Virus genome (UHGV): UHGV-0274736 | Length of the DNA stretch: 13,898 bases | Strand: one strand, 5' to 3' | From: a virus | Shown here: in pieces, positions 9,089 through 12,929 of the stretch | How the letters are laid out: every line of letters starts with the position of its first letter | Numbering within the stretch: position 1 is the first letter of the stretch | The notes under the pieces: model-generated | Told to the model about the DNA's origin: nothing | Databases searched by the model: none | The model's input: only the letters and a program-made list of their open reading frames with translations | Position numbers and translations under genes: made by a program

Positions 9089-9670
9089 ATGAACAACTCA
9101 TGGTGGCAGGAACTAATGCATTTTTTCCTGCAAGGAATGACACTTAAACAGTTGATTCATATGCTAATCATCCTGATCATATTGATTATTGTTATGCCGG
9201 TAAGCGTAAAAGAATGGATAAACCTGCATAATCCAGAAATCCTTCCTCATTATTGGATGTATTACATCCTGTTGTTCTGCGTTAGCTATGTGCTTAACGG
9301 TGTTGTTAATTCCGCTTATCACGCTGTGACTGAAAGAATTGAGGTATCCGCTGCTCAGAAGCGCAAATCTAAAGAAGAAAAATATGTGCAAGATTTGTTT
9401 GATTCGTTAACTCTTGGAGAAAGAGCGTATTTGGCATTCGCTGTAGCCGCGAATAACAAGCTAAAGACAGAAAAGGGAAGCCCCGAAGCAATCTCATTGC
9501 TCGAAAAAGGGCTTCTTATTCGGATACCTTCTGCTACTGGATATCCTGAAATCGACCGTTTTGTTATCCCGGAACGCTATAGAAATGAGTGCTACATTAG
9601 GTTTGCTGGGAAGAAAGACAGTCTTATGGATGAACTTATCGCTCAGGATAAGCATGGCAAAAACAAGTAA
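9089..9670 (+). CDS. sieB: Superinfection exclusion protein B
   Basis: MNNSWWQELMHFFLQGMTLKQLIHMLIILIILIIVMPVSVKEWINLHNPEILPHYWMYYILLFC... matches recalled lambda SieB; convergent with N as in lambda. Confidence 0.85.
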   Translation: MNNSWWQELMHFFLQGMTLKQLIHMLIILIILIIVMPVSVKEWINLHNPEILPHYWMYYILLFCVSYVLNGVVNSAYHAVTERIEVSAAQKRKSKEEKYVQDLFDSLTLGERAYLAFAVAANNKLKTEKGSPEAISLLEKGLLIRIPSATGYPEIDRFVIPERYRNECYIRFAGKKDSLMDELIAQDKHGKNK

Positions 9671-9686
9671 TTAGCAAATGATTTTA

Positions 9687-10070
9687 TCATCTCGCCGTCA
9701 GTTGTTTTGATTTCCTGTAGCCTGCCGCGTAAATGGCTACGTTTGGAAGACATACACCAGTTTCTGGTTGCTTATGTCCAAACTCATTCGCGTACACAAT
9801 GGCCGCTCGCTCCAGATTGCGTCTGTATTCTTTCTGTTGCCAGATCACGTCCTGTGCCATGAACTTAATTGGCTTAGCGTCTTCTATGCGCTCAGGCGTT
9901 TCGTGAGCACCTTTAGCCTGAATCTGCGCTCTGCTTAGAGTAGGGCGGTGTAATACTTCTGAACTTATTGCTTCTTCGCGGGCCAGCACGCCGTTAGCTA
10001 ATGCCTTTGCCTTTAAACGCTCACGACGACGAGAACGTGAATTGCCTTTGAACTGAGTTCTGCGTGTCAT
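9687..10070 (-). CDS. N: N-type transcription antiterminator (127 aa) with N-terminal arginine-rich motif
   Basis: AGGAGG SD 6 nt before ATG; N-terminal GNSRSRRRERLKAKA is an arginine-rich RNA-binding motif like lambda/P22 N; sits directly downstream of a boxB-like hairpin and pL-like promoter. Could alternatively be a Nun-type factor. Confidence 0.7.
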   Translation of the reverse strand: MTRRTQFKGNSRSRRRERLKAKALANGVLAREEAISSEVLHRPTLSRAQIQAKGAHETPERIEDAKPIKFMAQDVIWQQKEYRRNLERAAIVYANEFGHKQPETGVCLPNVAIYAAGYRKSKQLTAR

Positions 10071-10235
10071 ATAGACCTCCTGATGAACTTTGGTGGTGTG
10101 GTAGGTGGGAGACCCATTTCGACCTGTTTCGGCCTACTTCAATTCGGCAATAGTCCCGCAGGCCTCGCCGCTTTACGTGCGACATATTCCCGTCCATGAA
10201 CCCTTCACCACACCCCAAAGTTCACTTTGGTTATT

Positions 10236-10250
10236 GCGCTTTGTCAGCGC
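10236..10250 (-). promoter_or_regulatory. nutL boxB-like hairpin (GCGCTGACAAAGCGC on the transcribed minus strand)
   Basis: 5-bp stem with 5-nt GACAA loop in the N leader; the same hairpin core with the same 5' flank CTACG recurs downstream of cro (see nutR). Confidence 0.6.
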
Positions 10251-10318
10251 CGTAGATTCATATTCGAATCGTTGTATATTCACCGCCCTGGTGAGTAGTG
10301 CGTCCTGCTGATAGCTAA

Positions 10319-10347
10319 ATAGTACGATGTGTACTTTATTGAGTCAA
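10319..10347 (-). promoter_or_regulatory. pL-like promoter with operator OL candidate in the spacer
   Basis: On minus strand: -35 TTGACT (10342-10347), 17-nt spacer, -10 TACTAT (10319-10324); 15-bp perfect palindrome AGTACGATGTGTACT (10321-10335) overlaps the spacer and -10. Confidence 0.5.
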
Positions 10348-10404
10348 TACAAAATGTTCTAAATATGGTTGGTTTTTTATAACACCTTGTATTTTATTGA
10401 TTTA

Positions 10405-10440
10405 TATTTTGGAAAAAGAAAACCCGACGCTAAGGTCGGG
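10405..10440 (-). terminator. Intrinsic terminator downstream of cI
   Basis: Hairpin CCCGAC-GCTAAG-GTCGGG at 10423-10440 followed on the minus strand by TTTTCTTTTTCC; lies 33 nt past the cI stop. Confidence 0.6.
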
Positions 10441-10472
10441 TTATTGTTGTGTGTTTTAGAGTGGTGATGCTG

Positions 10473-11132
10473 TTAACTAAATGTCTCTTCAGGCCACTGG
10501 CTGGCGATAACTTTCCCTACTACGGAACAGCTATCATTGCATGGGATCATTGGATATTGCGGGTTTAGTGGTTGTAGGAACACCTGACCGCTATCCCTGA
10601 TCAGTTTCTTGAAGGTAAACTCCTCACCACCAAGTCTGGCTATGCAGAAATCACCTGGCTCAACAGCCTGCTCAGGGTCAACGAGAATTAACATCCCGTC
10701 AGGAAAACTTGGCTTGGATCCTGTTGGTGCGGTCATGGAATTACCTTCAACTTCAAGCCAAAACGCACAATCACTGGCTTTTTTGGTTGTGCTGACCCAT
10801 CTCTCCGCATCACCTTTGGTAAAGGTTCTAAGCTCAGGCGAGAACATCCCGGCCTGAACATGAGAAAAAACAGGGTACTCATATTGTTTTTTTACGGGGG
10901 CAGATGAGTATTCGCCAACAGGTGAAAATGTACCGTCGTGGTTGAATGAGACGTTATCAATACCAAGGTATTTAAACACCACACCAATCTCGTCAAGAGA
11001 TGGATGACGAGATCCGCGCAACCAGTGACCAATTCCACCCTGCGTCATACCAAGCTCTTCAGCTAACTTCTCTTGAGTTATGCCGAGCTCTTTCATTCTG
11101 GATCTAGCCAGTTCATACCATTTCATTTTCAT
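10473..11132 (-). CDS. cI: CI repressor: HTH (XRE-type) N-terminal domain plus lambda-type LexA-like S24 autopeptidase C-terminal domain
   Basis: C-terminal roughly 130 aa ([21 protein letters not shown]...GNSMTAP...[27 protein letters not shown]...) match recalled lambda CI including the Ala-Gly cleavage site and Ser/Lys dyad; N-terminal domain differs from lambda. Start is ambiguous (ATG at 11132 or 11126); the track ORF start at 11207 would run through the operator region. Confidence 0.85.
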
Positions 11133-11188
11133 ATCCTTATTATTACGCTCTGTACTAAAACCATCCATGCACAAGATGTATTTTTTGT

Positions 11189-11217
11189 TTGCATTCCAAG
11201 AGTACATATCGTATTAT
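11189..11217 (+). promoter_or_regulatory. pR-like promoter with operator OR candidate in the spacer
   Basis: -35 TTGCAT (11189-11194), 17-nt spacer, -10 TATTAT (11212-11217); spacer contains AGTACATATCGTATT (11201-11215), nearly identical to the OL palindrome. Confidence 0.5.
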
Positions 11218-11243
11218 TGTTTCATAGTTACTATGGAGGGCAT

Positions 11244-11459
11244 ATGAGCAACCTACGAAAATATCGAGAGTCACTGAATATCTCTCAAGCAACCCTTGCT
11301 AAGGCGGTTGGATGCACACAGGGGGCTATCGGACATTGGGAATCTGGTCGTCGCTTCCCAGACCTTAAAACATGCCGTGCTCTTGTTGCGTGCCTAAACA
11401 AGTTAGGCGCAAAAGTCAGTCTTGATGACGTGTTCCCGCCGGAACACCAAGCCGCTTAA
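11244..11459 (+). CDS. cro: Cro-like repressor (71 aa, HTH)
   Basis: GGAGG SD 4-5 nt before ATG at 11244; HTH segment ISQATLAKAVGCTQGAIGHWESG closely parallels the cI HTH ([23 protein letters not shown]); divergent from cI. The track ORF start at 11073 is an upstream extension overlapping cI. Confidence 0.8.
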   Translation: MSNLRKYRESLNISQATLAKAVGCTQGAIGHWESGRRFPDLKTCRALVACLNKLGAKVSLDDVFPPEHQAA

Positions 11460-11929: not shown

Positions 11930-12076
11930 ATGACAAAACAACTCAGTCCTTACCAGGACAAAATTCACAAACACATACTACGTGATCGCTTCCTGTCCAG
12001 CTTCAAGCAGCCTGGTCGATTCCGGTCTGAGTTGGAAAAAGTGAAGCTGATGCAGAAGGAGAAAGGTCATGAGTAA
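11930..12076 (+). CDS. Small hypothetical protein (48 aa) between cII and O
   Basis: AGGAG SD 6 nt before ATG at 11930; stop overlaps the O start by 8 nt; below the length cut-off of the ORF track. No recognised family. Confidence 0.4.
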
Positions 12077-12929
12077 TATTGCAACCGTAACACATTTAAG
12101 GCCTTCACAACGGCCTGTGGAGCGTCGTGTGGCAGAAGTTGAAGATGGTTATACCCGTCTTGCAAATGCCCTGTATGAAGAGCTTATCGGCGCAGATTTA
12201 ACGAAAAATCAGAGCAAGGTTGCCCACGCCATATGCCGTAAAACATACGGCTACGGTAAAAAGATGGATCGCATCTCTGATAGTCAGTTAGCTCAAATTA
12301 CCAGGCTGCCAAGACAGAAGGTAAACAAGGCCAAGAATGAGCTTATCGCGATGAAGGTTATCCTTCGCGAAGGCCAGCAAATCGGGCCTAACAAGAACAT
12401 CGAGGAATGGCAAATCGAAGGGTGTCACTACTCTGGTGATAATGTCACTGCATTGGTGACAAAAAGTGTCACCAAAACGGTGACAGCGCTGTCACCAAAA
12501 CAGGGACACACAAAAGAAACTATTACAAAAGAAAAAAGAAATAATAAAAACACTATGTCCGAAAGTGTTCGGACGGAGTGTGAAAAATCACCTGACCGTC
12601 ACGAAGAAACCGACAAGGCATTCGAGGAAATATTCTGGTGTGCAGGCATGCGGAAAGCCGGGAAGAAAAACGCAGCTTCGGCATTCAGAACACAGTTCAG
12701 GGAATGGCGTAAAACTACCAGGGGTACGGCAAGCGAGTTTGCCACGATGCTGGCAGAAGACATCGCATGCAGGAATGGTAAGCAGTTCGGATTCGACAGG
12801 TTGTTACCATCGAGCTACCTGAACGGTCAACGCTGGAACGACGAGAAGCCAGAAACTATTCAACCACAATCCAAACCATCATCCGCAATCACCGTATCGA
12901 AAACTGGCTACGTGTTTTTCGACAGGTGA
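12069..12929 (+). CDS. O: Replication initiator, lambda O-like N-terminal domain with a non-lambda C-terminal domain (286 aa)
   Basis: N-terminal segment [73 protein letters not shown]...GPNKNIEEW parallels recalled lambda O; iterons lie inside the gene. Confidence 0.8.
12421..12575. repeat. Replication origin candidate: iterons built on GGTGACA/TGTCACC inverted half-sites, adjacent AT-rich block, then palindrome GTCCGAA-AGTG-TTCGGAC
   Basis: GGTGACAAAAAGTGTCACC and GGTGACAGCGCTGTCACC, each followed by AAAAC, plus degenerate copies upstream; A-rich tract 12505-12550; 7-bp-arm palindrome at 12557-12574. Confidence 0.6.

Follow-up and report, generated by a model that had tools for sequence, protein, structure and literature searches.

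In phage lambda, the work of Steege in 1987, Kameyama in 1991 and Wilson in 1997 and 2002 reportedly describes a hairpin in the leader of the N message. RNase III is said to cut this leader at +88/89 and +197/198, positions attributed to Steege in 1987 and to later papers from the Court laboratory, and the main effect of the cleavage is reported to be uncoupling from nutL-bound N. Folding of the lambda pL leader (J02459) places boxB ahead of GGCUUUGGGGUGUGUG (+81 to +96), which pairs with CACACACC-A-CCAAAGCU (+188 to +204), and this second arm is followed by the Shine–Dalgarno sequence (SD) and the AUG at +223. On this fold the reported cuts fall between G88 and G89 and between C197 and A198, inside the invariant core, with a 2-nt 3' overhang of the kind that RNase III produces. 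RNase III is called a positive regulator of lambda N in a passage of PMC9032294 that cites Kameyama 1991, and the N leader is named as an RNase III target in an excerpt of a secondary source citing Steege 1987. According to a section of PMC5725501 that cites Wilson 1997 and 2002, translation of N is repressed by N together with Nus factors at NutL, across a leader that is 'highly structured'.

In the Escherichia coli rrn operons, a nut-like boxB-boxA element is followed by boxC (UCUGUGUGGG), which lies in the 5' strand of the leader–trailer helix and overlaps an RNase III site, and the antitermination complex has been proposed to hold this 5' strand until its partner emerges (PMC10250234). The phage leader has the same arrangement, in which a nut-like element precedes a G/U-rich 5' strand and long-range pairing of this strand builds an RNase III substrate (a predicted one in the leader studied here), and in both systems the structure of the helix outweighs the sequence of its strands. 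The rrn helix spans 1.5 kb of 16S rRNA and functions in ribosome biogenesis, whereas the phage helix encloses 40–198 nt and serves the translational control of a downstream regulator (a role that is predicted here); the two share no sequence homology beyond their G/U richness. The leaders of lambda cIII and E. coli adhE also resemble the present one in that RNase III promotes translation by way of a structured leader, as is proposed below, but in those leaders the ribosome-binding site itself is occluded, whereas the SD considered here is largely accessible.

The window, which is the whole 13,898-nt stretch of the viral genome UHGV-0274736 that was analysed, contains a region of an E. coli lambdoid prophage that spans the immunity and early-left functions. 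The N leader of this prophage contains a long-range stem with arms homologous to those of lambda (GGCUUUGGGGUGUGUG and CACACACCACCAAAGCU), and both stems possess the CUUUGG/CCAAAG core and a bulged A. In an ungapped anchored alignment the arms of the window and of lambda are in register and have CUUUGGGGUGUG and CACACCACCAAAG in common, while the differences between them are compensatory: G-C is replaced by A-U at column pair 13/59, and in the upper stem U-A is replaced by G-C and G-C by U-A. The order nutL, stem, SD and N is common to both leaders, with 91 nt between the arms in lambda and 101 nt (10204–10104) in the window. The window differs in having a lower stem that is 3 bp longer (11 bp versus 8), a stem-to-SD gap of 1 nt rather than 6 nt, a boxB-to-stem gap of 10 nt rather than 17 nt and an interior unrelated to that of lambda; its boxB is of the P22/H-19B type (GACAA loop) and its N is of the 127-residue 933W type, both unlike lambda. 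An earlier reading of the sequence by itself had likened the repeat to the RNase III-sensitive lambda leader, but as an analogous structure of much longer range. The link to lambda was correct, whereas the homology of the lambda arms at an equal scale, together with spans of 40–198 nt in related leaders, indicates that the stem is the same one and not a longer-range variant. By comparison of sequences and predicted folds, the stem is the orthologue of the lambda N-leader structure in a leader of the 933W/HK97 type, conserved and of low novelty.

Organization of the N leader

The features of the leader and its neighbours are listed in Table 1. The promoter is σ70-like, and the start of the transcript is placed near 10312 (the A of AUCAGCAGGACGCAC) by homology to the +1 of lambda pL, AUCAGCAGGACGCAC being the start of the leader in both phages. 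Hairpins observed in the folds of nutL comprise a 5' hairpin (10294–10280), a spacer dyad GAUUC..GAAUC (10270–10255) and boxB (GCGCUGACAAAGCGC, 10250–10236). The spacer hairpin, GAUUC-GAAUAU-GAAUC on the minus strand, sits between the first leader hairpin and boxB and matches the dyad symmetry that Neely and Friedman reportedly described in 2000 for H-19B-type nut site spacers. Following the transcript, pL is succeeded by nutL ending in boxB, 10 nt, the 5' arm, the interior, the 3' arm, a single nucleotide, the SD and N, so that in the pL transcript the stem separates boxB from the N ribosome-binding site. The 933W record carries no annotation between nutL and N, and a search of the whole window with Rfam cmscan (E ≤ 1) produced no family match within 10040–10320. 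An intrinsic terminator or attenuator was considered and rejected, the 3' arm being followed by CAGGAGGUCUAUAUG, which lacks a U-run, and no site resembling a terminator being reported at the stem.

Table 1. Positions of the N leader elements and adjacent features in the window
Feature	Position	Strand	Description and basis
LexA/cI-type repressor	10473–11207	-	Peptidase_S24 and HTH
pL-like promoter	10319–10347	-	-35 TTGACT 10347–10342, 17-nt spacer, -10 TACTAT 10324–10319; consensus scan
nutL	10236–10302	-	933W annotation mapped onto a leader of 99.6% identity
Local alternative hairpin	10215–10230	-	CCAAAG-UGAA-CUUUGG; overlaps the lower half of the 5' arm; local folds
5' (distal) arm	10206–10225	-	GUGAACUUUGGGGUGUGGUG; repeats, folds, homology to lambda +81 to +96
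Enclosed interior, structured, cassette type A	10104–10205	-	About 91–97% identity with phi80, CL707, 683R2 and Stx2a_F765
3' (proximal) arm	10083–10103	-	UACCACACC-A-CCAAAGUUCAU, bulged A10094; repeats, folds, homology to lambda +188 to +204
Predicted RNase III cut, 3' arm	10091–10092	-	Between C10092 and A10091; homology to the reported lambda cut between C197 and A198
N ribosome-binding site	10068–10081	-	SD AGGAGG 10081–10076, AUG 10070–10068
N antitermination protein gene, 127 aa	9687–10070	-	Pfam PF25694 N_peptide, E = 2.2e-15

The leader and the 5' end of the N gene are 99–100% identical in DNA sequence to those of 933W, HK97 and Stx phages, in which the gene is annotated as N, and N proteins in IMG/VR share 98–99% identity with that of the window. 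The stretch from 10312 to the N start is likewise 99–100% identical to 933W, HK97 and many Stx1/Stx2 leaders. The repressor/operator segment (10312–11300) differs from that of these phages and is of a rare immunity type, unlike the common N leader and N gene, and coverage of at least 80% of 9600–11300 is found in only two of 5426 complete E. coli genomes; the combination of a rare immunity segment with a common leader and N gene points to a mosaic junction near pL. On the plus strand a SieB gene is in convergent orientation. Elsewhere in the window, three inverted-repeat units (TGTCACTGCATTGGTGACA, TGTCACCAAAACGGTGACA and TGTCACCAAAACAGGGACA) are present at 12443–12508 on the plus strand within an open reading frame (12069–12929) that is a Phage_rep_O gene (Pfam E = 1e-37), and these repeats are almost certainly origin iterons, as in the lambda origin within O.

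Pairing and conservation of the long-range stem

Read directly as RNA of the minus strand, 10225–10205 is GTGAACTTTGGGGTGTGGTGA and 10103–10083 is TACCACACCACCAAAGTTCAT. In the N-sense transcript, 10225–10206 pairs with 10103–10083 to give 20 bp, two terminal G·U pairs included, with one bulge (A10094) separating a lower stem of 11 bp (G10225·U10083 to G10215-C10093) from an upper stem of 9 bp (G10214-C10095 to G10206·U10103). A repeat search recovered both halves independently as two inverted repeats, one of them a 10/10 match. In RNAfold the stem is present in both the minimum free energy (MFE) and the centroid structures, with ensemble pair probabilities of 0.98–1.0 for the core pairs and an arm–arm duplex energy of -31.9 kcal/mol; the whole 271-nt leader has a folding z of -3.56. 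The stem is thus a thermodynamically dominant duplex of about two helical turns. The sequence-only reading had claimed an inverted repeat (10083–10103 and 10205–10225) forming a roughly 20-bp duplex with one bulge in the leftward transcript, and had named folding of the leader as a check; the repeat, the duplex and its stability are all borne out. It had also recognized the two neighbours of the arms, and the distal arm does begin 10 nt after boxB, but the proximal arm is separated from the SD by 1 nt (C10082) and not by 2 nt.

That the repeat arose by chance and is without function is refuted, this reading keeping practically no probability. It could appeal to the general frequency of short inverted repeats and to nothing more. 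Across 300 dinucleotide-preserving shuffles of the leader, the longest helix with at most one 1-nt bulge averaged 11.5 ± 1.3 bp and never exceeded 17 bp, so that none of the 300 attained the 20 bp of the real leader, and a stem with covariation is found in more than 25 distinct leaders.

The leaders used for comparison were gathered by similarity of the N gene or of the leader and not by the arms. The set consisted of 933W, phi80, P22, ES18, 21, PA28, Sf6, HK542, CL707, 683R2, ST2-8624, Oslo, epsilon34, S135, SF6, sal5, an Enterobacter phage, ENT47670, SH2026Stx1, two genome contigs (the useful ones among seven loci obtained in an N-protein search) and 80 IMG/VR contigs. MFE folds place the stem adjoining the N ribosome-binding site in all of them except two IMG/VR contigs. 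The stem precedes N in HK97-type leaders and in six Salmonella and Enterobacter phages, and it is upstream of N in 78 of the 80 IMG/VR loci, the exceptions being one truncated and one rearranged contig. Throughout the lambdoid leaders examined the CUUUGG/CCAAAG core is near-invariant and a bulged purine is found on the 3' arm. HK542 combines a compensated G-C to A-U change in the core with the absence of a bulge, indicating that the bulge is not essential.

As in the window, the N (gene 24) leaders of P22 and 21 carry, just 5' of the N start, a long-range stem built on a UUUGG/CCAAA core and containing a bulged purine; they do not share the upper stem and interior of the window, and the lower stem of P22 has internal mismatches. 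The antitermination regions of lambda, 21 and P22 are said to have been compared by Franklin in 1985 in the Journal of Molecular Biology, under the phrase 'conservation of genome form but not sequence'. In the HK022 (nun) region, the record of which has no annotated nun, no clear counterpart was found. Two further loci show irregular copies of the 3' arm. In IMGVR_UViG_3300045988_069239 (L067), the 3' arm, the SD and the first four N codons are present upstream of N in a second, partial copy, which lies ahead of the regular one and is fused to the 3' half of boxB (AUGACACGCAGA joined to GCGCAAUAACC), which represents either a rearrangement or an assembly artefact. In Erwinia phage Eho59 (NC_048198; L109), a 3'-arm-like sequence followed by an SD (CAUCCAAUCACCAAAAUCAUC...GGAGGUCAAUAAUG, at about 260–300 of the locus) precedes not N itself but a small open reading frame upstream of, and overlapping, an N-like gene.

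Covariation was assessed for 26 distinct arm pairs in an ungapped alignment on the core, scored against the pairing scheme of the window. In this comparison of related and mosaic sequences, with the anchor pair taken from MFE folds, 90.2% of the cells form standard pairs, as against 38–47% when the 3' partner is slid by one to three columns. Changes on both sides are found at 14 of 22 pairs, including all nine of the upper stem, so that the compensation between the arms in related phages that the sequence-only reading had named as a further check is present. The observed value was matched by none of 500 shuffles on four of five measures and by 39 of 500 on the remaining one, further pair types. 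Upper-stem variants with a matching complement in each case are GGUGUGGUG, GGUGAAUGC, GAUGCGAUG, GAAGGCG, GAUUG, ACUGGCG and CGGUGAUGU, and at least eight independent solutions in the upper stem make the conclusion robust despite the relatedness and mosaicism of the sequences. Near-invariance is seen at the five pairs from U15-A57 to G19-C53, on either side of the predicted scissile bonds. G·U cells far outnumber A·C cells (47 versus 3), which argues that selection maintains the pairing in the N-sense RNA, as opposed to the DNA or the antisense strand. The stem is strongly conserved and functionally constrained.

The G/U-rich upper part of the 5' arm corresponds to GGUGUGUG of lambda, which has been called the 'boxC' of nutL. 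The 5' arm could accordingly be regarded as a boxC bound by NusA or the antitermination complex, with its pairing to the 3' arm secondary. Its sequence, GGGGUGUGGUG, does resemble both the lambda element and the rrn boxC, and nut sites have been described as boxA-boxB-boxC (PMC2724277, PMC10250234). This reading is nevertheless highly improbable: in other leaders the G/U-rich sequence is replaced (GGUGAAUGCAG, GAUGCGAUG, GAAGGCG or ACUGGCG) and the complementarity alone is kept, and in rrn the structure of the helix matters much more than the boxC sequence (PMC10250234). Since the G/U-rich sequence is exchanged while complementarity persists, the 5' arm is better viewed as a strand of a helix than as a protein-binding box.

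The enclosed interior and the local hairpin

Comparison of 10104–10205 with the equivalent segments of other leaders (L003–L012, L100–L110 and L020/L024) shows that the enclosed segment reassorts as a cassette, with at least ten unrelated types of 40–198 nt occurring in all combinations with five N types, independently of N type, and with mosaic breakpoints at the arms. Type A, that of the window, occurs with N of the 933W, lambda and phi80 types, and type D with N of the 933W, P22, lambda and 21 types. Within type A the interior varies little and includes one compensated pair. The same arms and a type-A interior are found in Stx2a_F765 (AP012534; L011, about 600–760) with no N annotated downstream; after CCAAAGCATTTC the sequence diverges into a promoter-like, terminator-containing stretch ahead of an antirepressor gene.

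This mosaicism could be taken to mean that the arms serve mainly as recombination junctions for lambdoid modules at the DNA level and that the pairing of the RNA is incidental, a reading with which the position of the breakpoints at or beside the arms and the divergence of Stx2a_F765 directly after CCAAAGCATTTC would agree. It is very unlikely, given that the upper stems are wholly different between cassettes and yet complementary, with every upper pair doubly changed, and that the excess of G·U over A·C cells has meaning only for the N-sense RNA. Use of the arms as junctions is better seen as a by-product of sequences conserved for RNA structure.

Directly 5' of the 5' arm, the core of the 3' arm recurs as CCAAAG (10230–10225) and can pair locally with CUUUGG. 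Local folds reveal a counterpart of this hairpin in all 19 of 19 leaders, with the versions UCAAAGC/GCUUUGG in lambda (+70 to +88, L002), CCAAAC/GUUUGG in P22 (L100), CCAGAAC/GUUUUGG in 21 (L108) and CCACA/UGUGG in L015. Where the long-range stem of P22-type leaders and of L015 contains mismatches, the local hairpin is compensated, which hints that it is itself under selection. The predicted RNase III cut falls at the 3' end of the local hairpin, and the predicted 5' cleavage product folds with the hairpin at its 3' end. The local hairpin may protect a tethered nut RNA or may merely guide co-transcriptional folding. A three-part device, in which the local hairpin caps and protects the tethered nutL RNA after processing and the interior is freed as a structured RNA that might act in its own right, is put forward tentatively and is on balance doubtful.

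Predicted RNase III processing and control of N

The inverted repeat is probably the stem of an RNase III-sensitive pL/N leader hairpin orthologous to that of lambda. Cleavage is reported for the lambda leader and is predicted by homology for the leader of the window, and the positions of the cuts and the regulatory outcome are likewise projected from the lambda literature. The putative partner of the cut in the 3' arm would fall in the 5' arm between G10215 and G10214, the homologues of G88 and G89 at the reported lambda cut, and the two cuts would leave a 2-nt 3' overhang.

In the proposed mechanism, the stem would set the boxB-bound N/Nus complex beside the N ribosome-binding site, and N would thereby repress its own translation in cis. 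The same stem would offer two turns of double-stranded RNA to the host RNase III, the staggered cuts of which (10215/10214 and 10092/10091) would cut out the interior and detach nutL from N mRNA, leaving the processed message with a 21-nt open leader. Autorepression would be relieved, and the level of N would be tied to the cellular activity of RNase III and would be higher when the enzyme is abundant. The base of the stem is at -13 from the AUG, within the 30S footprint, and the SD is not strongly sequestered. On processing, the predicted mean unpaired probability would change from 0.53 to 0.58 for the SD and from 0.41 to 0.56 for the region of the ribosome footprint. Simple sequestration of the SD was rejected on these grounds, the predicted accessibility of the SD being barely altered by processing; plain unmasking of the SD is therefore unlikely to be the effect, in agreement with the uncoupling from nutL reported for lambda. 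Among the papers searched, none connects RNase III with the N leader of 933W.

The stem might instead act as a structural scaffold or translational operator without RNase III cleavage, either holding nutL-bound N and Nus factors by the ribosome-binding site or hindering the 30S subunit. The location of the base of the stem and the low unpaired probability of the footprint (only 0.41) are compatible with such a role, as is the possibility of two outer C-G pairs with the first two guanines of the SD in 17–18 of the 26 leaders. Looping, helped by a structured leader, accounts for N autorepression in a section of PMC5725501, and G-C pairs by the scissile bond can be catalytic antideterminants of RNase III according to a passage of PMC1540722, the predicted cuts here being flanked by G-C. 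Against this, the homologous lambda stem, in which identical G-C pairs occupy the corresponding positions, is reported to be cleaved, and the 5 bp of the core surrounding the predicted cuts are near-invariant while the rest of the stem covaries freely, suggesting sequence-specific recognition by an enzyme and not just a helix of any sequence. A stem that acts without cleavage is thus considered improbable, and an RNase III-sensitive hairpin of the lambda kind is preferred.

The result extends textbook lambda biology and introduces no new principle. Since no Rfam family matched the element, the comparative data could seed one, defined by an invariant 5-bp core with a bulge at the predicted cut, a covarying upper stem and a reassorting interior. 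The level of N sets the pace of early gene expression, and in the Stx phages that have this leader, namely 933W and many Stx1/Stx2 phages, it also governs progress to Q and to the expression of toxin. Conservation of the hairpin in the 933W/HK97-type leader suggests that the lambda circuit, in which RNase III, itself dependent on growth rate, lifts the autorepression of N, probably operates in such clinically relevant prophages.
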